DNA of 45,448 nucleotides, taken from the NCBI GenBank assembly GCA_937872425.1, contig CALMSM010000181.1:1-45448 (forward strand). The letters run 5' to 3'. Position numbers and translations under genes: made by a program. How positions within the stretch are numbered: position 1 is the stretch's first letter; each line of letters starts with the position of its first letter. Source of the stretch: an uncultured Candidatus Saccharibacteria bacterium. GTDB taxonomy: Bacteria > Patescibacteriota > Saccharimonadia > Saccharimonadales > CALMSM01. Shown here piece after piece: positions 4,025-35,446 of this stretch. The notes beneath the pieces were generated by a model that was not told the origin of the DNA, did no database searches, and saw only the letters and a program-made list of their open reading frames with translations.

Positions 4025-4032
4025 AGATTACT
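4025..4032 (-). promoter_or_regulatory. AGTAATCT motif upstream of 3629..3985
   Basis: The minus strand reads CAGAAGTAATCT, where TAA is the GIY-YIG stop codon. A 37-nt leader with GGAG follows before the ATG at 3985. Confidence 0.4.
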
Positions 4033-4663
4033 TCTGAGCCAGATATACGAAGGTCAAACCACCGGCCGTTTTCCGCCTTCCCTTCAAGCAATGGACGATG
4101 TTCCCAGGAGGAATCTTCCAACGCTCAGAGGCCTCCTTAATGGTCTTGTAGACACGTCCGTGTTGATCCTGGAAAGGCGGGATTGCTCTTGCGGCTGCGT
4201 GGCTGACGAGTTGTTCTGGAGTCAAGGGAAGGCCCTTTTTGGGACTTGGGCGACCCGTGAGAGTGGCTGAGATTTTTGCTTTGTGAGCTTCCGTTTTTGG
4301 AACGCCTCGAAAGTGAGCGGCACGTCTCTCGATAGTTTCTGGGGAGTCTTTATGTCCTCTACGACCACAGCCACCATCGGTAAGATTAGTAAGCGGCAAA
4401 TTTCGCCGACGCATCTCTGCAATCCAATAGATTTCGGCAGCGTCAAGATACTTAGGTCCGGGCAATTGAACCAGTACAACGAACTTGGGCTTTAGTCCTT
4501 GGTCCAGTAAAGACTGAACCCAGAACTTTTTGTGCCGGGAAGAATCACGACACTTTATCCCTTGTAGATGCTCTTGGAAGCGTGCCGACCCCTTAGAAGA
4601 TTGCCCCACATATCGGGGACAACCGCATTTCGGACAAAGCAAGGCGTAAAGGATGTGTTTCAT
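4028..4663 (-). CDS. GIY-YIG homing endonuclease (I-TevI-like, with NUMOD-type repeats)
   Basis: Start reassigned to the ATG at 4663 (MKHILYALLCPKCGCPRYVGQS...), because the TTG start at 4693 in the track lies inside the MCP terminator hairpin. Motifs: ILYAL...RYVGQS, R..EH, and E in AAEIYWI. The C-terminal repeated G.P.S.E...KIS/G.PL.PE segments resemble NUMOD3. TGTGATAATCT sits 7 nt before the ATG. Confidence 0.8.
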   Translation of the reverse strand: MKHILYALLCPKCGCPRYVGQSSKGSARFQEHLQGIKCRDSSRHKKFWVQSLLDQGLKPKFVVLVQLPGPKYLDAAEIYWIAEMRRRNLPLTNLTDGGCGRRGHKDSPETIERRAAHFRGVPKTEAHKAKISATLTGRPSPKKGLPLTPEQLVSHAAARAIPPFQDQHGRVYKTIKEASERWKIPPGNIVHCLKGRRKTAGGLTFVYLAQK

Positions 4664-4670
4664 ACCCACC

Positions 4671-4681
4671 AGATTATCACA
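4671..4681 (-). promoter_or_regulatory. extended -10 promoter, leaderless layout (GIY-YIG gene)
   Basis: The minus strand reads TGTGATAATCT-ggtgggt-ATG (4663). Confidence 0.5.
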
Positions 4682-4691
4682 CTTTGGTCGC

Positions 4692-4711
4692 AAAAAGGCC
4701 CGTGCGGGCCC
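4692..4711 (-). terminator. rho-independent terminator after the major capsid protein gene
   Basis: The minus strand reads GGCCC-gcac-GGGCC followed by TTTTT, about 40 nt after the MCP stop. Confidence 0.7.
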
Positions 4712-4748: not shown

Positions 4749-6134
4749 TCAAAAACTTCCGACAAGGTTGTCCAGGAGGACGTTCTTGCGAGGCTGGAGG
4801 ACGGCGAGGGTGCAGAAGCGGAAGTGCGCTTCAGGCAGGCTGAGGTCCGTGACGGCCAGCTTCATACGCGAGTACGGAGCAAGCTCCTTCATGGTCATGG
4901 TGTCCTTCTGGAGGAGGAACCCAGTCACGAAGCCCGGCTTCTTGTTGCCGAGGTCGGTGAACACAGTCGTCGCAGCGCCCGAGTTCGCGACACGGCCGAT
5001 GAACTTCGCGGTCGCGGCAGGAGCACCAGCGTTGGTGCGGTACACGTTGAAGTACCGAACAGCGCCAGCGGCAGGGGTGATGGTCACGGAGACCTGGTCA
5101 CCGGCAGCAGCAGCCTGCGAGCCCGAGGCCGACAGAGGCGACTCACCAAGCTCGTTCACCGAAGTGGCGAGATAGATGTAGGTACCAGCGGTCAGGGCCG
5201 AAGTACCACCGGCAGTGCCGAGGGAGATGCTGGGAGCAGCAGGACCGACAGCGCGAGCAGCGGCAGGGCCAGTCTTGCCCGAGAGGAAGCGCGAGGCCTC
5301 AACCGAGACAGTACCACCCGAAACCCACTGACGCTTCAGGTCAGCGGCGGTTGCGTCCTGGGGCGAACCAGCGAGCACGATGCGCTCCTTGCCGAAGGAA
5401 ATCTTGTTGTAGGCCGACAGAACCTTGGGGTCGACGTACAGCGTCTCAGCTTCACCGTGCTGCATGATGCTCTTGACGTGTGCATCTTCGATGGCGTCCT
5501 GGGTCAGGGTACCACCGACGCTCACGACCACGGACTCGTTCGAGCCGTATTCAGCGAACATCAGGTCGGTCGTGTTGCGCTCAGTGTCCGACATGCGGAT
5601 CTGGGCATCGAGGCCGAGGAGGTTGGGCAGCGAGGGGTACGCAGCCATGTTGCCGTCGAACACACCAGCGTTCGAGAAGTCGCTCTTACCACGGAACAAG
5701 TCGAACTCGATGTCAGCCGAGAGCTTCTTGGCAGCGTCAGCAGCAGCGCGGTCTTCAGCCTTCTGGCCGTCGATCGTCTGAATCATGTTCGCAACTACGG
5801 TCACACGACGAACGTGCGAGTAAAAGGCCATGGGGACGACGATACGTACGAACTGGCTGTCTTCCTCGACGCCGACTGCGCCTTCCTGGGTGGCAGTACC
5901 ACCGAAGATGCCGTACGAAAGCTGACGGTCGAACTGTGCGAGGGTCGACTTGCACGATTCGGTCTTCATGCCCTTCTGGAGCTTGATGGACTTCTCTTCA
6001 AACGTGACGACCTGCATTACTGACGCAAGGTCTTCAATCTGGAGAGCGCCACCCTGGACGAGAGACGAGGGCGCTGCGTTGTAGTTGCCTGCTTCGAGAG
6101 CCTTCAGCAGGGCCTGAGTGACTTCACTGGACAT
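4749..6134 (-). CDS. major capsid protein
   Basis: 461 aa, placed immediately after the scaffold gene and followed by a terminator. The composition and position are typical of an HK97-fold MCP. The N-terminal leader MSSEVTQALLKALEAGNYNAAPSSLVQGGALQIEDL is shared with two other proteins in the window. Confidence 0.8.
   Translation of the reverse strand: MSSEVTQALLKALEAGNYNAAPSSLVQGGALQIEDLASVMQVVTFEEKSIKLQKGMKTESCKSTLAQFDRQLSYGIFGGTATQEGAVGVEEDSQFVRIVVPMAFYSHVRRVTVVANMIQTIDGQKAEDRAAADAAKKLSADIEFDLFRGKSDFSNAGVFDGNMAAYPSLPNLLGLDAQIRMSDTERNTTDLMFAEYGSNESVVVSVGGTLTQDAIEDAHVKSIMQHGEAETLYVDPKVLSAYNKISFGKERIVLAGSPQDATAADLKRQWVSGGTVSVEASRFLSGKTGPAAARAVGPAAPSISLGTAGGTSALTAGTYIYLATSVNELGESPLSASGSQAAAAGDQVSVTITPAAGAVRYFNVYRTNAGAPAATAKFIGRVANSGAATTVFTDLGNKKPGFVTGFLLQKDTMTMKELAPYSRMKLAVTDLSLPEAHFRFCTLAVLQPRKNVLLDNLVGSF
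6069..6134. repeat. 66-nt direct repeat, copy B (5' end of the MCP gene)
   Basis: See copy A. A shorter related stretch, GCGGCGTTGTAGTTaCCTGC, occurs at 11974-11993 inside the protease polyprotein gene. Confidence 0.85.
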
Positions 6135-6170
6135 GGGATTTCTCCTTGATACGAAAAACTGGGGTTGGGT

Positions 6171-7109
6171 TTACTTGATTTTGTCGAAGATGGACGCGAG
6201 GGCGTCGACCTTGACCTTGCCGGAGTAGAAATCGAGAATGAGACCGCGTTCGGACTTCGACAGGCTGGGGATGAGTTCGTTCAGCTTGGCCTTTGCTTCG
6301 GCAGGGCTGAATGCCTTGGTAGGAGCCGAAGGTGCGCTTTCGGTCTTCTTCAAGTAAGAGATTCCGGTGACGGCCTTGCGCTCAGGGCGCTCGACAACCA
6401 TCGTGATGGCCTTGGTGAGGTTCTCGACGTCTTCCTTGTACGACTTTTGGAGAGCGGCGATTTCAGCGGCCTGGGCGTTCTTGATTGCAGCGAGTTCGGC
6501 CTTGAAGTCGACTTCCGACTTGACCATTCCGCCATTGGCCTGCTTGTGCGAGGACATTTCCTTCTTCATCGCGGGAGGCATCATCTGCTGGTCGGGCGAA
6601 GGCGAAGCTGCAGGGCCAGCGGCTGCGGGAGGGGGAGGTCCGCCGGGCGAAGCGCCAGGAGGAGGCGAGGCGCCGGGAGGGCCACCAGCAGCACCGGCAC
6701 CGGCAGAAGCTGCGAGAGCTTCCTTGGCAGCGAGGGCGGCTTGGATGTGCATGTCCAGTTCCTCAGGAGGAAGCTGGGCATACTCGGCCTGGAGGGCTTC
6801 GGGGGTCAGGGGCTGTTCGCCCTGCTGAGGAGCGGCAGGGTCTGCCTGAGGAGCGGGGGCCGAGGTACCGGCCATATCGCCCGGGGGAGCAGAAGCGCTG
6901 GCGTCAGCACCAGGAGGCGCGTCCGAAGCGGGCGAAGCCGAGTCAGAAGCGGGAGGCGAAGCAGAGTCGTCGCTTGGCTCAGAAGGTTCCTTCGGCTCGT
7001 CGCCGTCGGCCTTCATGAGCGAACCCTTGGAAGCCTCGAAGGCCTCGTTGAGGTCCGCTTCCAAGGCGGCGATGACCTGCTTGAGGTCAGAATCCTTGAT
7101 TTTCGACAT
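6171..7109 (-). CDS. scaffolding protein
   Basis: 312 aa, directly upstream of the MCP gene. Helical charged ends flank a long Pro/Ala/Ser/Gly low-complexity core (SASPPASDSASPASDAPPGADASASAPPG...GGPPGASPPPGASPGGPPPPAAAG). Confidence 0.65.
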   Translation of the reverse strand: MSKIKDSDLKQVIAALEADLNEAFEASKGSLMKADGDEPKEPSEPSDDSASPPASDSASPASDAPPGADASASAPPGDMAGTSAPAPQADPAAPQQGEQPLTPEALQAEYAQLPPEELDMHIQAALAAKEALAASAGAGAAGGPPGASPPPGASPGGPPPPAAAGPAASPSPDQQMMPPAMKKEMSSHKQANGGMVKSEVDFKAELAAIKNAQAAEIAALQKSYKEDVENLTKAITMVVERPERKAVTGISYLKKTESAPSAPTKAFSPAEAKAKLNELIPSLSKSERGLILDFYSGKVKVDALASIFDKIK

Positions 7110-7136: not shown

Positions 7137-7580
7137 TTAAATCTGCGACTGAAGCTTGTTCTTCATGTCAGGGTCGAAGGTGGCCTTGAGGTTACCCGAG
7201 ACGATGTCCGAGACTTCGACGGCGTTGGTGTTGGCCGACATGTAGAGTTCAACGCGGGCACCACGGACGCCAAGCTCACCAAGCAGAGGGAGCAGGTTTG
7301 CGCCGAGAAGCAGCGGGGTGTTGGCGATGGTCGAGGTCTCCAGAACAACCTGGACAACCACGGGGTTGCCATACGCACGCTGGGTCAGGCCGATACCGTC
7401 AACGCCAAGAGGCGCGAAGTCGATGACGCGGATGAATGCGCTCTGCGAACCGGCCGTACCAGCACCGATGAGAATCGTGGGGTTCGCAGAAGCATCGAAC
7501 CCGACCGCCGAAATGGTGGCGAAACGACGAGCAAGGTCGTCACGGAGTTCGGCAGCGAAAGAAAGGGACTTGGCGCTCAT
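7137..7580 (-). CDS. head-module structural protein, function unknown
   Basis: 147-aa ORF and the first gene of the scaffold/MCP transcription unit. It has a strong AAGGAG RBS 8 nt before the ATG and an AGTAATCT motif at 7622-7629. Confidence 0.65.
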   Translation of the reverse strand: MSAKSLSFAAELRDDLARRFATISAVGFDASANPTILIGAGTAGSQSAFIRVIDFAPLGVDGIGLTQRAYGNPVVVQVVLETSTIANTPLLLGANLLPLLGELGVRGARVELYMSANTNAVEVSDIVSGNLKATFDPDMKNKLQSQI

Positions 7581-7666: not shown

Positions 7667-7960
7667 ATGACAGGACCCAAGCAGTGCCCAACGTGTGGGA
7701 AAGAGTACCGAAGGCGCTGTGGGCCGTGTAGACGCACCAAATACCAAGTCGAGAACTCAGGTCTCGTACTCGGAATGTGCAAACGATGCCTGGAGCCTAG
7801 AGCGCTCTACAGGAACGGGCAATGCAAGGTCTGCATGAAAACCCAGGGCCTTTGCGAATGCAAGGCGTGCGGGCTCTCATTTGTAGCCGAAATCCATCCT
7901 CGCCGGGGAATCTGCAAAGAGTGCAGAAACCGTTCAAGGCGGGTCAGTCGACAGGAATAA
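7667..7960 (+). CDS. multi-CxxC zinc-ribbon protein (moron-like, opposite strand to surrounding genes)
   Basis: 97 aa with six CxxC pairs (CPTC, CGPC, CKRC, CKVC, CKAC, CKEC). It has its own promoter, TTGTGC-N18-TGGTAATCT, 8 nt before the ATG. The 3' end overlaps the convergent GGDEF gene by 17 nt. Confidence 0.65.
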   Translation: MTGPKQCPTCGKEYRRRCGPCRRTKYQVENSGLVLGMCKRCLEPRALYRNGQCKVCMKTQGLCECKACGLSFVAEIHPRRGICKECRNRSRRVSRQE

Positions 7961-9095
7961 TCCCCTCACGGCCGGGCATTCTGCTGGCTGCGTGGGTCTT
8001 GGCCTGGCCCAGAGGTGCGTTGGCGGCCTTCTTGGCAGCCTTGGCGTCCTTGAGAGCCTCTTCAGCGTGGTCGCGGGTCGGACCGAAGCCCAGAGACATG
8101 CTCAGGCGGTGCGTGCCACGAATGGCGGGGATGCCTTCGAACTTGGACCGCAACGAGCGAGCGAAGAGTGCTGCGTGCTCATGGCTAGGTACGTGGGCAA
8201 CGAATTCGTCGCCACCGGTCCTGAAGAGCTTGCCGTTCTTGCGACCTACAGACTCATCCATGGCCTGCCTGAGTGCTCGACCCATGGCAGTGATGGCATG
8301 GTTGCCGGTTTCGTGGTCGTGCATTTTGTTGATGGACCCGAAGTCGTTGCCGTCGAGATGGACGTGGACGCCTTCACGGGGCCTGGACAAAAAGTCGTTG
8401 TAGGCAGCCTTGTTCCCGATGCTAGGAATCATGGTGTCGGTGAACAGGGTTTGGTTGACAGTCTTGAGGGCGTCTGGGTGGACGTGACCTCTCTTGACGG
8501 CCTCGCGAATTTGACCGAGGGCCGCTTCGAGATGGGGCTCAATCTTGGCGAGACTTTCGGACTTCGCCATCGAGGTCTTGACCGAAGGGCGAATGAGGGC
8601 CTTGCCGCTCTTGAGGTGTTCCATGACGAGCTTGGACTCATCGGGCTGCAGGGCCTGGTCGTCGAGGTACATCTGAGAGCCAGAGACCTTGAGGGTCTGA
8701 GGACCGGGCATGCCAGTTCTGTGGTACTCGAATTCGCTGACCTTCGGCCCCGGGAGCTTTTCGGTGATTTGACTGTGGAGTGCTTCGCCCAGGTCTGTCG
8801 GCAAATCGCCGTGACGTGGAGTTTTGGGGAGCAACTCGGGGTACTCGCCTGTGCGAAGGTCGTGGCTCGTGGCAACGACACGTCGCTGAGAAGTCATCAT
8901 GCGCTTGATGATTCGGGCGGCGGATTCGGGAGGCATCTTCGAGAGGTCCTGGTCACCGGCCATACCGTGGTCTTCGAGGACGGACATTTTGCCATCCTTC
9001 ATCCAAAGCTTCCCCAGCAACGTGTGATGCACGTCGTCTTTTTCTTCATGAGGGTGTACGCCAAATACGTAGACGATGTGTTTGTGGTGGTCCAT
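7944..9095 (-). CDS. GGDEF-domain protein (diguanylate-cyclase-like nucleotide cyclase) with His-rich N-terminal domain
   Basis: 383 aa. The C-terminal roughly 110 aa read HVHLDGNDFGSINKMHDHETGNHAI...LFRTGGDEFVAHV...SMSLGFGP...AEEALKDAKAAKK, which matches the GGDEF palm-domain pattern. GGDEF is encoded at 8202-8216. The gene lies in the same operon as the prohead protease. Confidence 0.75.
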   Translation of the reverse strand: MDHHKHIVYVFGVHPHEEKDDVHHTLLGKLWMKDGKMSVLEDHGMAGDQDLSKMPPESAARIIKRMMTSQRRVVATSHDLRTGEYPELLPKTPRHGDLPTDLGEALHSQITEKLPGPKVSEFEYHRTGMPGPQTLKVSGSQMYLDDQALQPDESKLVMEHLKSGKALIRPSVKTSMAKSESLAKIEPHLEAALGQIREAVKRGHVHPDALKTVNQTLFTDTMIPSIGNKAAYNDFLSRPREGVHVHLDGNDFGSINKMHDHETGNHAITAMGRALRQAMDESVGRKNGKLFRTGGDEFVAHVPSHEHAALFARSLRSKFEGIPAIRGTHRLSMSLGFGPTRDHAEEALKDAKAAKKAANAPLGQAKTHAASRMPGREGIIPVD

Positions 9096-9104
9096 CTTTA
9101 GCTT

Positions 9105-12100
9105 TCAATCAAAACGGAAACGGACTCCATTGCGGCGCTGAGCAGCAACTTCGTTCATGGCCTGGCGTGTGCCCTTGTATCGAGAGATATCGGGGGTGAG
9201 CTTGAATTGTGTCTGAAGAGCCTTCAGGCGACTGACCGCTTCTTTGACTGCCTTGTGTGGCATCTCGTGACGGTGCAGTTGAGCTTCCAGTTCGGTGGCA
9301 TCGAGCTTCGACAGCCAATCGAGGGCGGCTGGATGAACCGGTTCTGCGTAGGTCCCCGAGCTACCGAATTCGTTCGGCCAGCGGTCGGCCTCGGCTGCGA
9401 GATGGGGGTTCTTCACCTTGTTGTAGGCGTTCATGTAGTCCGCTACGAAGGGGTCGTACCCCCAGGCTCCGGTCTCACCCAACACGATGTTGTGGTCAAT
9501 CAGATTCAGGGCTCGGTTCTTTCGGTCAACAAGATAGTTCTGGCCGTGACGGTCGTTGTTGCCCATGACACGGTTCATGAACTGAAGCTTGTCGAGTTCT
9601 CCCGAGTCAGCGTGTTCGCGAAGGATGTTTTGGTGGTCGGGGTCCTTGGGGTCGTACTCTTTGCCTGCACGGCGCTCGATGATAGCATGTTCAACGCCGG
9701 TCTGTGGGTGGCGGACTACCGCGACAGCGGGTGTGTACTGGCCCAGACCGAAGAAATCTCGGGCGAGGTTGGCATACATACCTTCTTGTCGTACTTCCGG
9801 AATCAGCAAGTGGTGCTGACTGCCCCTTCCGGGTTCGGACTTGACGTACACCCTTTTGCCACTGGGGCCCTTCGACCAGAACGAATATGCCTTACGGCTA
9901 CCCTTTTTGGCCTTTACGGGCTCAGTCGCAAAATCAAAACCCTCTGCAAGTGCTTTTGCGTCGGGGTGGTAATTGAATTCACCGACGCCGTGGTCCTTGA
10001 CCGACACACGAGTGCCCGTCTCTTTGTGTACGGGCGTATGCTTGATTTCAAGGGGGTTCGCGGAGCGGGGGAACGTCACGATGTCTTCTGGTTTGAAGTC
10101 GTGGAAGTGTTCCTTGCGAACGGCGACGATGTCCTTCGGTCCCATGTCCAGGACGTGGTATTCTGCAGGTGCCTCGCCCCGAGTGTGGTGGTGCAGTGCG
10201 TAACCGGGCTGAACCTGCTTGCCGTTCCATTCAACCGCCTCAGGAGTGAGGTCGACCTGCACGGTCTTCGTCTTCGTGGCGGCCTTTCTCAGCGCAACCA
10301 GCGTGTCGACCTGGAGTTCCTCGAAGCGGCGCAAAACATACTCGCCCTTCTTGGCTTCGTTGGCCGTGAGCTTGGGTACCAAGTACCGGTAGTACAAGCC
10401 CAGAGCATGGACGGGGCCGTACTGTTCCAGCCAGCGGTGGTGCTGCATTGCCGTTCTGAAGTGGAGTTCGGGGTCGTACTCTGCGCCTGGCGTTTCAGCC
10501 TTCTTCAGCAGTGGGTTGACAGCGTCCCAGAAGGGCGCGTGGTCGGTCTCAGCGTTGGACGAACCCGAGTGAGGTGTACCAATGCGGCGCTCGTGGCCGG
10601 GGATGCTAATCCAGTGCCACCAAAATGCCGGGAACACAGACTGCTCTTCGCGCCCCTTGAAGTAGGGCCCGATTGCGGGGTCATTCAAGACCGCCTTGAC
10701 GGCGTCGTGGTTCTGGTAATAGTGCTTGTCGATTCCTTCGAGCAAATCGTGCGAGCTTGAGCTTGACAGCAGCGAATTCTTGAGGTGTTCTTGGGTCTCG
10801 GAGTCGACCGAGGTGTTCGAACCTGGGGCGATGGGCTGCGAGCCGAAATAATGTCGGATGAAGTGGGTGTCGGGTACGACCATGTTGCCTGCACCCATCA
10901 TGCCAAGCAAATACCGGGACAGCTTGGGTGCAATACCACGCACGTCGGTCAGGCGCCGGGCAACCTTGCTTGCGTCGCCCTTGGCCGCTCGAATGGTCTG
11001 GACGATGTCGTTGTGGTGGTTGTTGATGTATTCACCAAAATATTTGGCGAACTGGTTGGGTTTGTTGTAGCCCTGCATCGCACCGGTCTGGGTCGTGAGT
11101 TCCTTCTCAATCGACGTAAATGCACCCAGCATCGGCTTCCCCGCAGGGTCCATGACGTCGTTTCCGCTTGCATCCGTGACCTTCTTGGCGGGGTCAAAAT
11201 ACTCTTTGGTGTAGTGACTGTTGGAGTGCTTGGGGAGGCCCGTGCGGTTTCTGGCCATCCAGCCCTTGACGGTTTCGTCCCACTTAGCCGGGTCGGCGTG
11301 TGTCAGGCCCTGGGAGTGGAGTTGGTCCATGAAGTGCCCGTACATGAACTCTTGCATCGGAACGGGAATGCCGGGGCTCATCAGAGCGAAAGCGACGGCG
11401 TGAGATACCACGCCAGGGTGAATGTCGCCCTTCGAGAACCGGTCATTGACGACGAACCAGTTCCGCATCGCACGCTGGTGGTGCGTGCGACGGTCTGCGA
11501 GTTCATCCTGGAAGTGCTGAGCGATTTCCGGGGCGCCCTTGCCCGTGTGTGCCATCAGGTGGGGGTGGGGGTTCGAAGGAGTCGAGGCCTGGAAGACGCC
11601 TTGACGTGTCGTCAGAACACCCTTGTCGAAGCCGAGTTTGCTCTTCTCGGGAGGCGCATTGACTGGACGTCCCTGGACGGTGAACGTCGAGGGCTTAGGT
11701 TCGGGCGGCTTGACCAGCTTGGCGGGCTTTTTGCCAGCCTTCGCCATCTCGCGCAGAACTTCCTCGGCCTTCTTGACCTTGAAGATGTGGCTGTCAACGA
11801 TTTCCTGGAAGTGGTCCAGGAATTCATCGCTGGCCTCTGGCAACCTGGCCTTGAGGAACTTCTTGAAGGGGGTGACCCTGTTCCAGTCGCGGAACGCAGC
11901 AAGGGCGAGGGCGCGGTGCTTCCGCGACTGGTCTTCGACTTGCAGGGCTGCACCGCCGGTCAGAGTACCTGGTGCGGCGTTGTAGTTACCTGCAGCCATA
12001 GCCTTGGAGATTTCAGTACCGTAAATGGCCTCAGAGCCCCCGAGACGAACGAATCGTGGGTCGACGTGCTCGCCCTTCTTGGTCGAGGTCGTAGGGACCA

Positions 12101-12659
12101 TGGCGAGCAAGTCGGCCGCGACGGGGTTCTTGTCGTAGCCCTCAGGTGCGTTGGGGTCTGCGAGCAGGCCCGATACGGCAGTCTTGTTGCAGGGGCGCAG
12201 GGTCAGAGCGACACGACGCGCGATGGTGGTCTTGAGACGGTTGGTCTTCGAGTCCTTTTCGAGCGTCGAGCCTTCAATCGAGAACCCGACGATGATGGGC
12301 TCGTTGTTCGCATGGGAGTCACGGATGATGGCAGCGAGAGCCTTGGCGCCTTCGTGGCCAGCCCCGTCATAGAGACGGATGATGCCGTAAAGAAAGGGGA
12401 TTTTGACCTTGCCCCAGAACAGCTTCTCGCGGTCGTTCGAACAGTCGGACGAACTGTAAATCTTCTTGGCAAAAACCACCTTGCCGACGATCTCTTGACC
12501 TTGATTGTTCTCGTTGTCGTGGCCTTGATGTTCATAGTTGCATACCCCTTTCCCATCATCAAAGTCCGAGATATCGATACCTTTTACGTCAAGAATTTCT
12601 CCAGAAGAATCAATTGCTTCCGAAGCAAAGACGCCATCCATCAGCAGACCAGTACTCAC
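9105..12659 (-). CDS. prohead protease fused to a large internal-virion polyprotein with C-terminal PI3/4-kinase/HipA-like kinase-fold module
   Basis: 1184 aa with a GTG start. Residues 1 to about 175 resemble HK97-family prohead proteases (GVFASEAIDSSGEILD...NYEH...VGFSIEG). Residues 216-243 (EISKAMAAGNYNAAPGTLTGGAALQVED) repeat the MCP leader. The mid region contains a helix-hairpin-helix-like stretch, VRGIAPKLSRYLLGMMGAGNMVVPDTHFIRHYFG. The C-terminal stretch LQFMNRVMGNNDRHGQNYLV...LNLIDHNIVLG matches the G-x-x-DRH-x-x-N / IDH(F)G catalytic pattern of PI3/4-kinase-like and HipA-like kinases. Confidence 0.7.
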   Translation of the reverse strand: MSTGLLMDGVFASEAIDSSGEILDVKGIDISDFDDGKGVCNYEHQGHDNENNQGQEIVGKVVFAKKIYSSSDCSNDREKLFWGKVKIPFLYGIIRLYDGAGHEGAKALAAIIRDSHANNEPIIVGFSIEGSTLEKDSKTNRLKTTIARRVALTLRPCNKTAVSGLLADPNAPEGYDKNPVAADLLAMVPTTSTKKGEHVDPRFVRLGGSEAIYGTEISKAMAAGNYNAAPGTLTGGAALQVEDQSRKHRALALAAFRDWNRVTPFKKFLKARLPEASDEFLDHFQEIVDSHIFKVKKAEEVLREMAKAGKKPAKLVKPPEPKPSTFTVQGRPVNAPPEKSKLGFDKGVLTTRQGVFQASTPSNPHPHLMAHTGKGAPEIAQHFQDELADRRTHHQRAMRNWFVVNDRFSKGDIHPGVVSHAVAFALMSPGIPVPMQEFMYGHFMDQLHSQGLTHADPAKWDETVKGWMARNRTGLPKHSNSHYTKEYFDPAKKVTDASGNDVMDPAGKPMLGAFTSIEKELTTQTGAMQGYNKPNQFAKYFGEYINNHHNDIVQTIRAAKGDASKVARRLTDVRGIAPKLSRYLLGMMGAGNMVVPDTHFIRHYFGSQPIAPGSNTSVDSETQEHLKNSLLSSSSSHDLLEGIDKHYYQNHDAVKAVLNDPAIGPYFKGREEQSVFPAFWWHWISIPGHERRIGTPHSGSSNAETDHAPFWDAVNPLLKKAETPGAEYDPELHFRTAMQHHRWLEQYGPVHALGLYYRYLVPKLTANEAKKGEYVLRRFEELQVDTLVALRKAATKTKTVQVDLTPEAVEWNGKQVQPGYALHHHTRGEAPAEYHVLDMGPKDIVAVRKEHFHDFKPEDIVTFPRSANPLEIKHTPVHKETGTRVSVKDHGVGEFNYHPDAKALAEGFDFATEPVKAKKGSRKAYSFWSKGPSGKRVYVKSEPGRGSQHHLLIPEVRQEGMYANLARDFFGLGQYTPAVAVVRHPQTGVEHAIIERRAGKEYDPKDPDHQNILREHADSGELDKLQFMNRVMGNNDRHGQNYLVDRKNRALNLIDHNIVLGETGAWGYDPFVADYMNAYNKVKNPHLAAEADRWPNEFGSSGTYAEPVHPAALDWLSKLDATELEAQLHRHEMPHKAVKEAVSRLKALQTQFKLTPDISRYKGTRQAMNEVAAQRRNGVRFRFD

Positions 12660-13234
12660 TTTGCCACCATCCCACGACCAGGTACAAATACGAACGATTC
12701 AGACGCGGACTTCTTGGGTCGGACTTGCACACCGTGCCGTTTCAAAATTCCAAAAACATGACTTGAAGAGGTATCAAACTCGGCTGCGACAGCGCGCAAA
12801 GTCGCCCCCGTTTGATACCGAGCAATTACTTGAGTGTCATCAAGACGCTCTTCGCGACCCCAACGCTGATAAGCGCTAGCTCTCATGCGACCGACCGTTT
12901 CCACCGTCTTCTTGTGGCCAGGGGTGCCGTCCCCACCGTCCGTAAGATTCGTGAGTCTGCACCCAAGAGCACGGTAGTAAGCAATCCAAAACCGTTCGGC
13001 TTCATCCAACTCCTGAGAATCGACCACAGACTCTAAGACTTCGATCTCTGGGCGAAGACCCACCGCAACAAGACCTTTTACCCAGTTCCCCTTGTGGGTA
13101 AAATCCTTAATCACTCTCGTTGGGTTTGCGTGCTGCCGAGCGCGACGCTTCCCCGAACACGACTTGCCGACATACCTCAACTGCCCGTCTCGCGGGTCTA
13201 CCAGACCGTAGACGATAAAGAGTCCTGTCGACAT
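12656..13234 (-). CDS. GIY-YIG homing endonuclease
   Basis: 192 aa. Motifs: FIVYGLVDPRDGQLRYVGKS...RRARQH...EAERFWIAYY...NLTDGG. The C-terminal helix-turn-helix-like segment is IARYQTGATLRAVAAEFDTSSSHVFGILKRHG. Its stop overlaps the protease start by 4 nt. Confidence 0.8.
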   Translation of the reverse strand: MSTGLFIVYGLVDPRDGQLRYVGKSCSGKRRARQHANPTRVIKDFTHKGNWVKGLVAVGLRPEIEVLESVVDSQELDEAERFWIAYYRALGCRLTNLTDGGDGTPGHKKTVETVGRMRASAYQRWGREERLDDTQVIARYQTGATLRAVAAEFDTSSSHVFGILKRHGVQVRPKKSASESFVFVPGRGMVAK

Positions 13235-13253
13235 TGTGGCGACCTCAATTCCA

Positions 13254-13262
13254 TGGTAAGAT
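13254..13262 (+). promoter_or_regulatory. extended -10 element upstream of the SLOG gene
   Basis: TGGTAAGAT, with a roughly 50-nt leader to the ATG at 13316. It overlaps the minus-strand AGTAATCT (13259-13266), giving a face-to-face divergent pair. Confidence 0.4.
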
Positions 13263-13266
13263 TACT
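13259..13266 (-). promoter_or_regulatory. AGTAATCT motif upstream of the GIY-YIG/protease/GGDEF unit
   Basis: The minus strand reads CCAGTAATCT. A 24-nt leader with GAGG follows before the ATG at 13234. Confidence 0.4.
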
Positions 13267-13315
13267 GGAACGAGAGTTTAACACTTTCGAGCTTTTACCT
13301 GAAGGGCCCCAAAGA

Positions 13316-13663
13316 ATGAGAATCTTGATTTGTGGCACTCGGAATCGCCAACCGGTAGAAATCCTTCGGAAGATTATCGACCTGTTTCCAGTCGGTACGG
13401 TTGTCATCCACGGAGGTGCCCGTGGCGTCGATTCCACAGCGGGCCAAGTCGCGAGCCAGCGTGGGCTCAAAACTGAAGTCTATCTTGCCGAATGGGACAT
13501 CTACGGACCTGGTGCGGGGCCCAAACGAAACCAGCAAATGCTCGAAGCGAGGCCCGACATCGTCATCGCGGTTCACAACGAGCCCGAACTTGGCAAGGGC
13601 ACAGCCGACATGGTGAAGCGCTCTAGAGGCGCGGATTTGCCGGTATTTGTGTTCGGGTGTTGA
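13316..13663 (+). CDS. SLOG-superfamily protein (DUF2493 / YspA-like)
   Basis: Start set at MRILICGTRN. The sequence ...VVIHGGARGVDSTAGQVA...AEWDIYGPGAGPKRNQQML...PDIVIAVH...GKGTADMVKRS...LPVFVF follows the DUF2493 pattern (C-G-R...hGGA-G-D...W...AG..RN..M...GT..M). Confidence 0.75.
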   Translation: MRILICGTRNRQPVEILRKIIDLFPVGTVVIHGGARGVDSTAGQVASQRGLKTEVYLAEWDIYGPGAGPKRNQQMLEARPDIVIAVHNEPELGKGTADMVKRSRGADLPVFVFGC

Positions 13664-27832: not shown

Positions 27833-29605
27833 ATGGGAATTCAATACCAAAAAGTCAAGTCTGCTGCAAAAGTCATGCGAGGTCGCGGTAACCAGCTTCA
27901 GTCTTCGGTTCTTGAGACCTTGAAGACCTGTAGCGACCTGGTCGGCTCAACTCTCGGACCCGGTGGCCGTTCGGTCATCATCGAGCACCAGGACCCCGCA
28001 ATGCCACCGGTCATCACGAAGGACGGCGTCACGGTCTTCAGGTCCTTGGGTTTTACTGACCCGACGAAGCAGGTCCTCATGGAGGCCGCACGGGACTCGT
28101 CGATTCGAACCGCGAGCGAAGCAGGTGACGGTACTACGACCGCCACCATCCTGGCCGAGGCTTTCACTCGAAATATCATGGAGTTCTGCGAAAAGAACCC
28201 CCACGAGTCACCTCAGCGGGTTGCCCGGTTTGTCCAGTCGGAGTACCAAAGCTCAATGGTCCCGATGATTGAGGCTCTCAAGCTCAAGCCGGACTTGTAC
28301 TCCGAGACCGGCAAGGCCCAGCTTCGTGCTGTCGCCAAGATTTCCGCGAACGGTGACGAGCCGCTCGCCACTGCGGTCATGAAGGCCTTCGACGTCATCG
28401 GTGATGCCGGTAACGTGACGATTTCAGAGGCCAACGGTCCTTCTGGGTACCACGTGCAGTTGATTGAGGGTTACCCGGTCGGTATCGGCTACGAAGACGC
28501 GTGTGGCCCGTTCTATCAGAAATTCGTCAACGACGTCGGTACCCAGCAAACGGTCCTTGAGCGGCCCAGCTTCATTTTGCACCACGGCAGAATCAGCGAC
28601 TTCAACGCGATTTTCCCCGCCCTGGCCCAAATCGCCAACCTGGTCAGCGAGGGCACGCAAATCGACGGCAAAAAGCTGACCCACAACGTGGTGCTGGTCG
28701 CCACCGGTTTCAGTGAGGTCGTTCTCGCGCATCTTGCGGCAGGCTTCGTGCAGGAAGGTACGCTGAACATTTTCCCGCTGTTGGTTCCCCCGAGCCCCAT
28801 CAAGACCGGCCAGTATGACTTCTTGTGCGACCTGGCGGCTTTGACTGGTGCGGCCATCTTCGACCCCCTGGAACTCCCTCTGCAGAACTTCGTTCCCGAG
28901 CACATCGGTGTCGGTCCCCGCCTGTTCGAGGCTGGCAGGTTCAGGTCCAACGTCATCGGCAACCGCGACTCGCTGCTGGTTCTTGAGCGGGTCGACCAAA
29001 TCACCAAGCAACTCAGCGGTGAGGCGACCTCCGACCTGGAGAAGACCTTGCTCCGCGAACGTGTCGCCAAGCTGACGAGCGGTATCGCGAAGATTGTCGT
29101 GCAGGGTTCGAGCTACGGTGAAATCAAGGAACGCCGCGACCGTGTCGAAGACGCGATTTGCGCCGTCAGAGAAGCCATCAAGCACGGGGCTCTGCCCGGT
29201 GGTGGTGTGACGCTCGCGGTACTCAGCAAGCACTACACTCAGGTGGATTCGCCGATCGCCCAGGAAATCATCGCGCCTTCACTCCTGGAACCTGTAAAGC
29301 GCCTTTACTCGAATGCTGGATACTTGACGGCAGAAATCGACGGCTTCATCGCCGGGCTCTCGAAGGACCAGTCGTTCGACGTCATGCTGGGTAGGTCTGT
29401 CGACCCCGCACAAAGTGGGTTGCTGGATTCCTTGCCCGCCGTTCGGGAGGCCTTGAAGAACGCGATTTCGATTGCGGGACTTCTGGGTACCTGCGGCGGT
29501 ACCGTTGTGTTCCCACGTGACGGAGACCTGGAGCGCAGCGAAGCAAGTGATACGGCAGAATGGCTCCGCAACGCGAGCGTAAATGAGGCGAATGAGAGGG
29601 GCTAA
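27833..29605 (+). CDS. GroEL-like chaperonin (Cpn60 family)
   Basis: 590 aa. TLGPGGRSVIIE...PVITKDGVTV...EAGDGTTTATILAEAF aligns with GroEL TLGPKGRNVVL...PTITKDGVSV...AAGDGTTTATVLAQAI. GALPGGGV also aligns with GroEL GVVAGGGV. Confidence 0.9.
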   Translation: MGIQYQKVKSAAKVMRGRGNQLQSSVLETLKTCSDLVGSTLGPGGRSVIIEHQDPAMPPVITKDGVTVFRSLGFTDPTKQVLMEAARDSSIRTASEAGDGTTTATILAEAFTRNIMEFCEKNPHESPQRVARFVQSEYQSSMVPMIEALKLKPDLYSETGKAQLRAVAKISANGDEPLATAVMKAFDVIGDAGNVTISEANGPSGYHVQLIEGYPVGIGYEDACGPFYQKFVNDVGTQQTVLERPSFILHHGRISDFNAIFPALAQIANLVSEGTQIDGKKLTHNVVLVATGFSEVVLAHLAAGFVQEGTLNIFPLLVPPSPIKTGQYDFLCDLAALTGAAIFDPLELPLQNFVPEHIGVGPRLFEAGRFRSNVIGNRDSLLVLERVDQITKQLSGEATSDLEKTLLRERVAKLTSGIAKIVVQGSSYGEIKERRDRVEDAICAVREAIKHGALPGGGVTLAVLSKHYTQVDSPIAQEIIAPSLLEPVKRLYSNAGYLTAEIDGFIAGLSKDQSFDVMLGRSVDPAQSGLLDSLPAVREALKNAISIAGLLGTCGGTVVFPRDGDLERSEASDTAEWLRNASVNEANERG

Positions 29606-32828: not shown

Positions 32829-33566
32829 ATGAAGATTCTTGCTCTCGACATCTCAACAAAGACCGGCTGGGCGATCTTCGAAACCGGAGTCGCCCAGCCG
32901 GTTGCTTTTGGGGTCTTTGAAAACCCCATCGCAGCGAATTCCATGCCTTATCCGGCAAGCTTCTTGAAGGTCGCAAGGGCTCATGCGTCCTGGCTGAAGG
33001 ACGCAGTCAGGTTTGATCCCGCCAGGACGGTCTTCACCGAGAAAATAGAAATGTGGCCCAACCGTTTCAGCGCCGTCGTCATCGAAGAGACGAACAAGAC
33101 TGGCCGATTCGGGTCACGCCACTCGCAGAAGCTACTTGAGTTTTTGCACTACGCGACAGTAGAAGTTCTTTTGGAGAGCTACCGGGTCGACCAAATCAAG
33201 TATGTCAACACCTCGGACTGGCGCAAGAAGCTCAACCTCAGTGTCGCCGAGACCAAAAAGCTCGCCAAGCCTGCCCTCCGCGAATTTGAAGCGGCCAAGA
33301 AAGCCTTGCTGTCGGAAAAAGACCGAGCTAAGAAGCTCGTTTTGAAGGGTAACCTTGAAACCCTCAAGCGAGACCTCAAGGCGCGCTGTATCCATGGCAA
33401 AATCGACAAAAAATCCATCGCAGTCGCCTTTGCCAACGCTAATTGGGGCCTCACGCTCAAGAAGGGCGACAACGACATTGCGGACGCTTTGTGTTTGGGC
33501 GAAGCGTATCGGCGTGGAGTCCACACGCTCACCAATTCGGACATTTTCGACAGGAAAAACAAATGA
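32829..33566 (+). CDS. ruvC: RuvC-fold Holliday-junction resolvase
   Basis: 245 aa. Catalytic-residue pattern: MKILALDISTKTGWAIF (D), VVIEETN (E), DIADALCLGEA (D). TGTGGTAAGAT sits 6 nt before the ATG. Confidence 0.75.
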   Translation: MKILALDISTKTGWAIFETGVAQPVAFGVFENPIAANSMPYPASFLKVARAHASWLKDAVRFDPARTVFTEKIEMWPNRFSAVVIEETNKTGRFGSRHSQKLLEFLHYATVEVLLESYRVDQIKYVNTSDWRKKLNLSVAETKKLAKPALREFEAAKKALLSEKDRAKKLVLKGNLETLKRDLKARCIHGKIDKKSIAVAFANANWGLTLKKGDNDIADALCLGEAYRRGVHTLTNSDIFDRKNK

Positions 33567-35446
33567 CACAGTGGTCCAACCTAGCCAAAGTGGTGTATTA
33601 CCGGACGTACTCGCGGCACGACGAAGGGAAGCAGGAAAACTGGAAAGACACCGTCAAGCGTGTCATCGCCGGGAACGTCCAGGACCACAAACTCGCTTCG
33701 GGCGAAGCGAGGAACCTTGAGTACTTGCTGTTGAATCGGAAAGCCGGACCTGCTGGTCGCGGTTTTTGGTTCTCGGGTGCTGCTGGTCATCGTGACCTGG
33801 GCGGCGTAGCCCTGAACAACTGCTGGTTCACGACCGCTGAGGACTGGATGAACTTCGTCCTCGCACAGGACCTGCTGATGCTGGGCGGCGGTGTCGGGTT
33901 GTCAGTCGAGTACAAGTACACCTCCAAGCTTCCCATGGTGAAGCGCGGCGTCAATGTCGTCCACAAGTTCACCAAGGATGCCGACTTCATCGTTCCTGAC
34001 AGCCGTGAGGGCTGGAACGAGCTTGTCCGCCGCACCCTTGAGTCCTTCTTGGTCACGGGCAAGTCTTTCAGCTACTCGACCTACGTCATTCGACCCGCAG
34101 GAGAACCCATCAAGGGCTTCGGAGGCAAGGCCTCGGGCCCGCAACCCCTCATCACTCTCGTCGAGAAGATTTCCGGCATCTTGAGGGCCCGTGAGGGCAA
34201 GAAGATTCGTCCTATCGACGCGATGGACATTTTGTGCGCCATCGGCGAAATGGTCGTCTCGGGTAATGTCCGTCGTTCGGCCATCATCATCCTGGGCGAC
34301 CCCTGGGACAAGGACTACCTGAAGGCCAAGCGTTGGGACCTCGGCAACGTGCCGAACCAGCGTGCCATGGCGAACCTTTCGGTCGTCGTAGACGACGTGG
34401 AAGACCTGCACCCGCTGTTCTGGAAGACGTACGAGGCCGGTGAGCCGTTCGGCATCGTCAACCGCACCAACATCCAGAAGTATGGGCGTATGGGCGAACT
34501 GAAGAAGGACACCGCCATCGGCGTCAATCCGTGTGCTGAGGCAACCCTGGAAGGCGGACCTCTCGTCGCAGAGCCCTGTAATCTCCAAGAACTCCCGCTC
34601 CCCAACATCGAAGACGAAGACGAGTTCGTCCTTGCGGCACGTATGATGCACCGCTGGGGCAAGCGCGTCACGATGGAAAAATACCACTGGGGTGGCATTG
34701 ACGAGGTTGTCAAGCGCAACCGCCGAATCGGTACCGGAATTACGGGCTGCCTGCAGAGCCCGCTCTTCAATCCGAAGTCGCTGGACCGTGCGTACCACGC
34801 CATCCAAGAAGAAAACCGCAAGTATTCCAAGGAACTCGGCATCCCCGAGTCGATTCGCACGACCGTGGTCAAGCCATCGGGCACGATGTCCAAGGTGTTC
34901 GATATGCGCGGGTACGAAGGCATTCACCCCGCGTATTCGAGGCACTACATCCAGCGTGTGCGTTTCTCCTCCAATGACCCTCTCGTGCCGATGCTGCGCT
35001 TGGCAGGGCACTACGTCGAGCCTGTACAGCGTTTCGACGGCACGCTTGATTCAAGCACCGTTGTGGTAGACTTCTACGAACAAGCGCCCCAGGGAGCCCC
35101 GGTAGCGGACGAAGACTGGGACACCTGGAAGCAGCTTGACACTCTTTTGATGGCTCAGCGGCACTGGGCAGACCAGGCCGTCTCCGTCACCGTGTACTAC
35201 AAGCGAGAGGACCTGGCCAAGCTCAAGGTCTGGCTGGCAGAAAACCTGAAGAGCCTGAAGTCCATCAGTTTTTTGTGCCACTCCGACCACGGCTTCACCC
35301 AGGCACCCAAGGAAGCCATCGACGCCGATACGTACGCAGAACTTTCTGCAAAAATCAAACCCATCAAGATTGACAGCGACGTCAGTTCGAGCGAAGATCT
35401 ACTCGACGGTCTGGAATGCATGGGGGGAGTGTGTCCGGTAAAGTAG
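33563..35446 (+). CDS. nrdJ: class II (adenosylcobalamin-dependent) ribonucleotide reductase
   Basis: Start at MTQWSNLAKVVYYRTYSR, with an ATGA overlap with ruvC. Active-site NPCAE and the C-terminal Cys pair CMGGVCPV are present. The roughly 627-aa monomeric size is typical of NrdJ. Confidence 0.8.
   Translation: MTQWSNLAKVVYYRTYSRHDEGKQENWKDTVKRVIAGNVQDHKLASGEARNLEYLLLNRKAGPAGRGFWFSGAAGHRDLGGVALNNCWFTTAEDWMNFVLAQDLLMLGGGVGLSVEYKYTSKLPMVKRGVNVVHKFTKDADFIVPDSREGWNELVRRTLESFLVTGKSFSYSTYVIRPAGEPIKGFGGKASGPQPLITLVEKISGILRAREGKKIRPIDAMDILCAIGEMVVSGNVRRSAIIILGDPWDKDYLKAKRWDLGNVPNQRAMANLSVVVDDVEDLHPLFWKTYEAGEPFGIVNRTNIQKYGRMGELKKDTAIGVNPCAEATLEGGPLVAEPCNLQELPLPNIEDEDEFVLAARMMHRWGKRVTMEKYHWGGIDEVVKRNRRIGTGITGCLQSPLFNPKSLDRAYHAIQEENRKYSKELGIPESIRTTVVKPSGTMSKVFDMRGYEGIHPAYSRHYIQRVRFSSNDPLVPMLRLAGHYVEPVQRFDGTLDSSTVVVDFYEQAPQGAPVADEDWDTWKQLDTLLMAQRHWADQAVSVTVYYKREDLAKLKVWLAENLKSLKSISFLCHSDHGFTQAPKEAIDADTYAELSAKIKPIKIDSDVSSSEDLLDGLECMGGVCPVK

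Follow-up and report, generated by a model that had tools for sequence, protein, structure and literature searches.

A GGDEF-family protein encoded behind the prohead protease of an Mx1-like phage is a candidate capsid-loaded cyclic-dinucleotide synthase

Phages are known to destroy or sequester the signalling nucleotides of their hosts, and a single instance is known in which a cyclase of the host is stimulated. Enzymes also travel in the phage head itself: T4 Alt and internal proteins, and the ejection proteins of phiKZ and SPN3US, are made late, loaded into the prohead, processed by the protease and ejected together with the DNA, and Alt acts before phage transcription starts. GGDEF domains, which characterize the bacterial diguanylate cyclases, were predicted in 2017 in presumably packaged phage 'polyvalent proteins' (Iyer et al., PMC5512222). 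The present analysis concerns a stretch of 45,448 nucleotides (contig CALMSM010000181.1), referred to in its entirety as the window, in which a complete gene on the minus strand (7944..9095; ATG start, stop codon 7944-7946), defined by its open reading frame (ORF) and translation, encodes a 383-residue protein with a C-terminal GGDEF domain. The gene stands in the head module of a large tailed phage, directly behind the gene of a giant prohead-protease polyprotein. Sequence and gene-order comparisons suggest, with a probability of about one half, that the protein is a capsid-loaded, probably ejected synthase of purine cyclic dinucleotides.

The only annotated relative of the window phage is the Myxococcus phage Mx1 (OR576727.2; 169.6 kb, 55.5% GC). 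The N-terminal module of the window protein is homologous to WNM70323.1 of Mx1, a hypothetical protein (E = 6e-9), and its GGDEF domain to WNM70324.1, labelled 'nucleotide cyclase' (45% identity). The gene order is also shared, with portal, prohead protease (1239 residues in Mx1), N-module ORF, cyclase, two small genes and the major capsid protein (MCP) following one another. In contrast to the window, the N-module (150 residues) and the GGDEF domain of Mx1 lie in separate ORFs (8516-9699 of the Mx1 locus L001), the stop and start codons of which overlap by one base; elsewhere in the family they make up a single protein, and the Mx1 arrangement could be a genuine split or an assembly frameshift. 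The Mx1 genome announcement contains no discussion of, or experiments on, the cyclase homologue.

The product of the window ORF belongs to the GGDEF domain family by profile and by fold. It matches Pfam PF00990 above the gathering score (33.8 versus 23.8 bits, E = 3.5e-8), with residues 242-357 covering profile positions 33-150 of 161, and a profile of the 59-sequence family matches 38 solved GGDEF proteins, GGDEF being aligned with GGDEF. The AlphaFold2 model of the 383-residue protein, computed from the alignment of 59 homologues, has a mean predicted local distance difference test score (pLDDT) of 90.4. In a Foldseek comparison with the PDB, diguanylate cyclases account for every one of its top 50 matches; isolated GGDEF domains superimpose with template-modelling (TM) scores of 0.6-0.7 and root-mean-square deviations of 3-4 Å (e.g., 4wxw, TM 0.69 and 3.0 Å; 3i5b, TM 0.64-0.66), and the stalk-containing SiaD, WspR and DgcB align over about 190-255 columns. 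A library of viral structures holds one full-length relative, 'GGDEF domain, uncultured Caudovirales phage' (E = 8e-25), as well as unrelated phage GGDEF proteins of Bacillus phages G and SP-15 and Bordetella phage CN1. The sequence is divergent, and the NCBIfam profile TIGR00254 'diguanylate cyclase' is matched below its cut-off (28.5 versus 37.4 bits).

The profile and fold searches thereby bear out the GGDEF call of an earlier note on this DNA, which had been made from the ordered landmarks DGNDFGSIN (residues 248-256, nt 8328-8354), HETGNHAI (261-268), RTGGDEF (292-298, nt 8202-8222 including RT), SLGFG (334-338) and AEEALKDAK (344-352); all five are found, in that order. The C-terminal placement given there also stands, whereas the estimate of the last roughly 110 residues was too short: the GGDEF (palm) domain, delimited by the PF00990, family-profile and Foldseek matches, spans approximately residues 220-383 (7947..8438, minus strand) and includes the helix GNKAAY, the equivalent of GLxNRR. 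A long ORF on the plus strand (7992-9101) is the GGDEF gene's shadow.

Analogous to the canonical GGDEF cyclases PleD, WspR, SadC, SiaD and DgcB, the window protein combines the fold with the signature, the metal-binding Asp, the sugar-face Asn, the phosphate-binding Lys and a helical stalk. Residue counts given here out of 59 refer to the close family, i.e., 59 aligned sequences of 38-100% identity. The GG(D/E)EF signature is complete in the window protein (G294-G295-D296-E297-F298; 8202..8216, minus strand), with Asp296 as the metal-binding residue and Glu297 as the general base, and is kept in 53-59 of the 59 homologues; its central residue is always Asp, and GGEEF never occurs. The second metal-binding residue, Asp248 (8352..8354, minus strand), corresponds to Asp327 of PleD and aligns with the first Asp of the DxDxFK motif of solved cyclases, and Lys352 takes the place of the phosphate-binding Lys442 of PleD. 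Conservation is nearly complete at these and neighbouring positions: N256, G295 and D296 occur in 59/59 sequences, K352 and K355 in 58/59, and D248, R292 and E297 in 56/59. The equivalent of PleD Arg446 is ambiguous owing to an 8-residue insertion; Lys355 is present in 58/59 sequences.

Unlike the canonical cyclases, the protein is viral, is encoded in a head module and carries a novel N-terminal module instead of a REC, PAS, GAF or transmembrane sensor. It also misses several textbook features of diguanylate cyclases, namely the equivalents of Asp344 and Arg300 of PleD, the inhibitory I-site and a score above the NCBIfam cut-off. The absence of an RxxD I-site, already remarked upon from the sequence, holds: the position reads RKNG (residues 285-288), position 288 is Gly in 38 and Ala in 18 members of the close family and never Asp, and RxxD occurs in no member, so the predicted enzyme would not be feedback-limited by its product. 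The cross-dimer Arg (PleD Arg300), which is found in 94% of predicted cyclases and whose role has been described (PMC6456294), is replaced by Lys229 (Lys 45, Arg 9, Leu 4 and Gln 1 in the close family), and the Lys of DxDxFK is replaced by Gly253 (Gly 44, Lys 9).

The most conspicuous substitution concerns the Watson-Crick base-contact position, which is Asp344 in PleD and Ser348 in GacA and is occupied by Asn265 (8301..8303, minus strand) in the window protein, as the earlier note had observed. Asn is not a fixed feature of the family; it alternates with the canonical Asp. Position 265 is Asn in 34, Asp in 24 and Thr in one of the 59 sequences, and approximately 11 Asn/Asp switches are counted on a neighbour-joining tree with an inferred root state of Asp, while the adjacent positions are invariant. 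Mx1, unlike the window, has the canonical Asp. The Hypr GGDEF enzymes GacA, GacB and Bd0367, which produce 3',3'-cGAMP (cyclic GMP-AMP), resemble the window protein in their non-Asp contact residue, their central Asp and their non-Arg cross-dimer residue, and the structure 6d9m is among the fold matches; Hypr-GGDEF structures indicate that a non-Asp contact residue is compatible only with Asp as the central residue of the motif (PMC6456294). The window protein is nevertheless not a Hypr GGDEF, because its contact residue is Asn and not Ser or Thr; in addition, its family toggles between Asn and Asp, and it has no REC domain. A literature search found no published data on Asn variants at the base-contact position. 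In principle, the carboxamide of Asn265 might recognize guanine or adenine.

These non-canonical residues (Asn265, Lys229 and Gly253) raise the question of whether the chemistry is that of a cyclic-dinucleotide synthase at all. Cas10 and mCpol, host defence enzymes of type III CRISPR and Panoptes that make (cyclic) oligoadenylates or 2',3'-cyclic di-AMP, have a related palm fold with a GGDEF-like motif. A Cas10/mCpol-like or other nucleotidyltransferase, yielding cyclic oligoadenylates, linear pppNpN or another nucleotide, might serve the phage as a decoy or antagonist of CBASS or type III CRISPR, and an M. xanthus island with CBASS and type III-B CRISPR indeed protects against phage Mx4 and not against Mx1 (PMC11506125). 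The matches to Cas10 profiles are nonetheless weak and fall well under the GGDEF score: Cas10-Cmr2_palm2 of Pfam reaches 19.1 bits against a threshold of 27, TIGR02577 reaches 11.6 against 79.4, and the Cas10 model of PADLOC gives E = 7e-5 at 20 bits, whereas the mCpol profile is not matched. Membership in the Cas10/mCpol group was rejected on these scores. Moreover, only diguanylate cyclases are found among the structural neighbours, the Asn that contacts the sugar face of guanine (N256) never varies in the close family, and we know of no phage counter-defence that works through the synthesis of such signals. A different chemistry is thus considered highly unlikely.

The remainder of the protein is peculiar to the family. 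The earlier description of a His-rich N-terminal region without a recognizable motif is accurate, since 16 of the first 235 residues are His (6.8%) and Pfam has no family that matches this stretch. Within this region, a module of residues 1-172 (8580..9095, minus strand), modelled with a pLDDT of 87, forms two beta-beta-beta-alpha-beta units separated by a disordered loop; it matches no solved fold significantly in a Foldseek search of the PDB (best E = 0.13) and no family in Pfam. The N-module alone, used as the query of an exhaustive HMMER search through 1.84 billion cluster representatives, retrieved 44 proteins, in which it is always N-terminal and its partner is always a GGDEF-type domain, the remaining cases being short or split ORFs. 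Two further ideas about the module were not supported. The model has two such units, yet an internal tandem duplication receives an hhalign probability of only 2.8% and finds no support in the sequence; a role as an adaptor that also precedes the kinase-like part of the polyprotein receives 0.6% and was rejected.

The N-module is joined to the palm domain by a linker and a two-helix stalk (residues 173-219; 8439..8579, minus strand). The linker contains the motif K-x-E...K-I-E-P in a loop of low confidence (pLDDT below 50 at residues 175-183), which is conserved in the close family (K178 in 49/59, E180 in 47/59, E186 in 43/59 and P187 in 50/59). The motif (residues 175-187) sits exactly where the Mx1 gene is split in two, and it may be a processing or cleavage site.

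The genomic setting is that of a phage head module. The window, with a GC content of 56.7%, represents part of the genome of a large, Mx1-like tailed phage. Among its genes are those of a tailspike, MCP, scaffold-like protein, portal and terminase for structure and packaging, those of a helicase, SbcC, a class II ribonucleotide reductase and a Pol III alpha for replication and nucleotide metabolism, and two tRNA genes. The prohead-protease polyprotein (9105..12659, minus strand; 1184 residues) consists of a protease domain at about residues 1-215, a middle region and a kinase-like C-terminal part. Its identity as a prohead protease is based on a match to PHROG 1028 'head maturation protease' (E = 8.4e-9), shared by five of seven relatives, on the NYEH and SIEG motifs, which are invariant among the relatives, on its position in the head module and on the Mx1 annotation 'putative prohead protease'; neither the full-length protein nor a profile of its N-terminal part matched any PDB sequence. 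On the other side of the GGDEF gene, a 147-residue protein (p147; 7137-7580), a 312-residue Pro/Ala-rich scaffold-like protein (6171-7109) and the MCP (4749-6134; PHROG 752 major head protein, E = 1e-39) are encoded on the same strand. Gene content and synteny thus confirm that the GGDEF protein is encoded within the head-assembly operon, and the 9-nt gap reported earlier is correct, with the polyprotein stop codon at 9105-9107 and the GGDEF start at 9095.

The scaffold and MCP genes had also been described as a separately promoted unit. The separation rests on a conserved antisense gene that lies between the protease/GGDEF unit and the p147-scaffold-MCP unit; a promoter signal was not recovered, since a scan for sigma-70 promoters and terminators around the GGDEF gene gave matches no commoner than in shuffled sequence. 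The antisense gene is a 97-residue multi-CxxC ORF (7667..7960, plus strand) without a Pfam match, which fills what looks like a gap downstream of the GGDEF gene and shares 17 nt with the 3' end of that gene. Homologous ORFs, placed and oriented alike, are found in at least 15 related loci, among them Mx1, in which the stretch is unannotated (L001 9656-10150, minus strand); the ORF looks like a conserved small zinc-ribbon-type gene with a possible regulatory role.

The same slot recurs throughout the family, which is narrow and confined to one phage clade, with Mx1 as its sole cultured member. There are 64 full-length close homologues (38-100% identity) and 44 divergent representatives. In every context inspected, comprising Mx1, contigs of about 170 kb, a 55-kb contig and shorter contigs, the GGDEF gene directly follows the polyprotein gene and lies upstream of the scaffold and MCP genes. 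The order is preserved in a 170-kb contig (53% identity) in which homing endonucleases are inserted around the GGDEF gene, in an 18-kb contig (39% identity) and in three divergent representatives, one of which is motif-degenerate. The start codon lies 0-9 nt from the polyprotein stop, and the spacing of 0-2 nt after the stop in called-gene sets with direct adjacency suggests translational coupling. The association was also assessed without reference to the GGDEF gene by selecting 80 IMG/VR loci on their MCP alone and scoring them with the family profile. Of these, 73 extend 3.5 kb or more upstream of the MCP, and 27 of the 73 contain the gene, always on the same strand and between the protease and p147-scaffold-MCP genes.

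The strongest support for a location inside the capsid comes from gene fusions. Nine independent loci have one stop-free ORF in which a complete N-module and GGDEF domain come after the protease region. The protease part corresponds to residues 2 to about 300 of the window polyprotein, usually with residues of about 380-800 as well, and the GGDEF part to family-profile positions of approximately 9-378; the junction is conserved and preceded by an ...ELRKA... helix. The fused forms lack the kinase-like C-terminal part and have the canonical Asp265 together with Lys, Arg or Ser at position 253. The interior of the prohead is where a prohead protease does its work, so that any fused partner would be carried there as well, and by this Rosetta-stone argument the fusions argue that the GGDEF protein is likewise capsid-internal. 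The suggestion of virion delivery made in the earlier note therefore gains in plausibility from the family-wide slot behind the polyprotein and from the nine in-frame fusions, on comparative grounds; the host-rewiring effects considered there are speculative.

In the window itself, the GGDEF ORF is in frame with the polyprotein, with a TGA and three codons between them (...RFRFD*KLKMDHHK..., where the asterisk marks the stop; 9093-9107, minus strand). Read-through at this point would recreate the fusion of the relatives, although the arrangement may be due to chance. Programmed read-through as a means of joining the two genes was rejected, because the other unfused loci use out-of-frame overlaps or short gaps, so that no conserved read-through signal exists.

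Both the position in a virion morphogenesis module and the fusion to a head component in nine loci are features of packaged effectors, a class (T4 Alt, MuF-fused toxins and polyvalent proteins) that the GGDEF protein would resemble in function. The polyvalent and MuF- or portal-fused effectors (PMC5512222) similarly carry enzymatic domains, occasionally GGDEF, that accompany head components in the genome or are fused to them, and that are shuffled among proteins; in contrast to them, the carrier here is a prohead-protease polyprotein rather than MuF or portal, and the window encodes the GGDEF protein in a small gene of its own, with a dedicated N-module. The location in a structural module, called unusual in the earlier note, is fairly so described, although it is not unprecedented in view of the 2017 prediction and of the 'nucleotide cyclase' label in the GenBank record of Mx1. 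The parallel with T4 Alt is one of logistics, as there is no homology and the predicted chemistry is that of a nucleotide cyclase rather than an ADP-ribosyltransferase.

The enzyme might instead remain in the cytoplasm of the producer cell, unpackaged, and act late in infection by immobilizing the cell, blocking development or sporulation, or preventing superinfection. The late-operon context and the intact active site would suit such a role, no capsid-targeting or MCP-like motif is recognizable in the GGDEF protein, and in Myxococcus cyclic di-GMP (c-di-GMP) controls type IV pili, exopolysaccharide and development. The in-frame fusions to the protease, however, place the domain inside the prohead in at least those nine relatives, and the accretion of effector-like domains in relatives fits delivered proteins better. 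A purely cytoplasmic role is accordingly judged unlikely.

This accretion takes several forms. P0106 has a DUF3626 at its C-terminus (residues of about 600-680), P0100 has a phrog_12251/YunG-like insert (about 190-300), and P0097 (about 175-420) and P0103 (about 390-553) share an extra domain of approximately 165-200 residues (E = 2e-18) at different positions. Such domain shuffling is reminiscent of that typical of the 'polyvalent' effector proteins that are predicted to be packaged and injected. Assignment of the domain shared by P0097 and P0103 to the ADP-ribosyltransferases, on account of an LLHRG...SWT...ExE pattern, was not confirmed, since no Pfam, PHROG, PDB-sequence or phage-genome match was found.

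Taking these lines together, we propose that the GGDEF protein would be made late, translationally coupled to the giant polyprotein, and would enter the prohead together with it, the N-module serving as the loading or docking part; this portion of the proposal has moderate support from the slot and the fusions. More tentatively, the protein would be retained in the mature head through maturation and be ejected with the DNA into the next host, where it would dimerize through its stalk and condense two purine nucleoside triphosphates to a cyclic dinucleotide, free of product inhibition, before phage genes are expressed. The product would be c-di-GMP or, given Asn265 and Lys229, possibly a mixed or adenine-containing dinucleotide. 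The pay-off can only be speculated upon and might be an early takeover of the second-messenger physiology of the host, affecting surface structures, motility, development or superinfection exclusion. Precedent for phage influence on this pathway exists in the phage peptide Yip, which raises host c-di-GMP by acting on the cyclase YfiN; raised c-di-GMP leads to induction of PlzR, and PlzR blocks infection by pilus-dependent phages. Interference with cyclic-nucleotide immunity, which the earlier note had also considered, is a less likely pay-off. A further-reaching possibility, which we regard as doubtful, is that Mx1-like phages pre-load an active, feedback-insensitive synthase by means of a dedicated loading module, docked on or fused to the polyprotein, and inject it with their DNA, and that the Asn/Asp switching reflects product changes between c-di-GMP and adenine-containing dinucleotides, driven by conflict with host cyclic-nucleotide sensing or immunity.

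Several observations weigh against a capsid-loaded, ejected synthase. The general-base Glu and/or a metal-binding Asp has been lost in 16 of 37 divergent GGDEF-bearing representatives (~40%) and likewise in seven syntenic loci, in each case with the gene kept in its slot. The degenerate motifs include GGDKF, GGDRF, GGDNF, GGTKF and SGDK, among others, often accompanied by replacement of Asp248 by Asn. As the slot is retained when catalytic residues are lost, catalysis cannot be the only function of the family; its non-catalytic role would most simply be structural or one of loading in the prohead, and would suffice for retention in the degenerate lineages. Even in the window protein, the substrate-binding segment departs from that of the solved cyclases (Lys to Gly253, Gly to Asp260, Asp to Asn265 and cross-dimer Arg to Lys229), which, together with the sub-threshold TIGR00254 score, means that activity could be weak or altered. 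No c-di-GMP or cGAMP riboswitch was detected in the window with Rfam at the gathering threshold, the two tRNAs being the only matches, and a literature search found no virion proteome for Mx1 or for phages related to it. Instead of being ejected into the host, proteins that assemble together with a prohead protease are often broken down and expelled ahead of DNA packaging, the T4 core proteins being an example. Finally, 46 of the 73 MCP-selected loci, which form a sister subclade with a related MCP, have no GGDEF gene, and their protease gene is short and oppositely oriented.

Part of this evidence would suit a structural or assembly protein, i.e., a prohead core or scaffold-like component comparable to gp67, gp68 and the internal proteins of T4, in which the GGDEF domain is a dimerizing or nucleotide-binding block and catalysis is incidental or vestigial. 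The fusion of the gene to the protease polyprotein and the rigid gene order beside the scaffold and MCP genes are equally expected of such a component, as is the persistence of motif-degenerate genes in the slot. What a purely structural role would not maintain is the near-invariance of the catalytic residues in the subfamily of the window, which, unlike its degenerate relatives, keeps the catalytic set intact down to 38% identity. The fused forms, furthermore, are the most canonical ones (Asp265 and Lys/Arg253), and the sister subclade builds related capsids without the gene, which is therefore not generally required for assembly. A solely structural function is on balance rather improbable, and a capsid-loaded synthase remains the preferred explanation for the window protein.

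Some elements of this picture were already on record, as GenBank and JGI label members of the family 'nucleotide cyclase' or 'GGDEF domain-containing'. The recognition of a narrow viral family, its N-module, the linkage and fusions to the protease, the Asn/Asp switching and the relatives with catalytic loss are new here. Literature searches retrieved no description of the family, the N-module, the protease linkage or fusion, the Asn/Asp toggling or the split between intact and degenerate members, nor any experimental study of a phage-encoded GGDEF enzyme or of one linked to a prohead protease.

If the proposal is correct, a cyclic-dinucleotide synthase carried in the virion would represent a new takeover route in the first seconds of infection and the first virion-delivered second-messenger synthase. 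Mx1 offers a cultured representative of this capsid-maturation-linked GGDEF family on a genetically tractable host, Myxococcus xanthus, whose motility, exopolysaccharide and development are under the control of c-di-GMP and cGAMP. From the protease fusions, a general route can be envisaged for loading cargo into large phage heads, which could be exploited for protein delivery, and the coexistence of intact and degenerate active sites would constitute a natural experiment on an enzyme becoming a structural protein.

The polyprotein has features of its own. At residues of about 810-1184 (nt 9108-10232, minus strand), it shows the PI3/PI4-kinase-like catalytic-loop signature DRHGQN...IDHN, and this part matches PF00454 (PI3_PI4_kinase) at 22.6 bits, under the cut-off of 27.1. 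The kinase-like part is conserved C-terminally in the polyproteins of all unfused relatives, including Mx1, and absent where GGDEF is fused; it may be another packaged enzyme. The C-terminal parts appear swappable among relatives, in which kinase-like, faint ParB_N and DUF5661 regions are found. A 25-residue motif, KA(M/L)xAGNYNAAPxxLxxGxALQxED, occurs twice in the window, in the polyprotein just after the protease domain (residues 219-243; 11931-12005, minus strand) and near the N-terminus of the MCP (residues 11-35; 6030-6104, minus strand). Its copies agree at 68% identity (E = 1e-11), relatives conserve it, and the GGDEF protein lacks it; it may be a shared maturation-cleavage or docking motif.

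Other genes in the vicinity could be connected with nucleotide signals. An ORF at 13094-13663 (plus strand), divergent from the head operon, encodes a YAcAr/SLOG domain (PF10686, 36.5 versus 28.2 bits), a class predicted to bind nucleotide-derived ligands, and the 170-kb relative L002 has a cREC_REC (PF20274) gene on the opposite strand between its portal and protease genes. Both are possible nucleotide-signal partners of the cyclase.

Elsewhere in the window, a GroEL-like chaperonin (27833-29605), a PHP-domain-containing replicase of the Pol III alpha type (39595-43494) and a class II (B12-dependent) ribonucleotide reductase (33443-35446), all on the plus strand, form a set that fits a genome of the Mx1 type, about 170 kb in size. 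The head module also harbours genes of the homing-endonuclease type, namely a GIY-YIG gene with a helix-turn-helix (HTH) domain just upstream of the protease gene (12656-13234, minus strand) and an I-HmuI/NUMOD-like gene after the MCP (4028-4693, minus strand). In the head modules of relatives, LAGLIDADG, Endonuclease VII and HTH genes flank the GGDEF gene and an intein interrupts the portal; these mobile elements lie at 5603-6256, 9655-10008 and 11019-11969 in L002 and at 853-4323 in L085.

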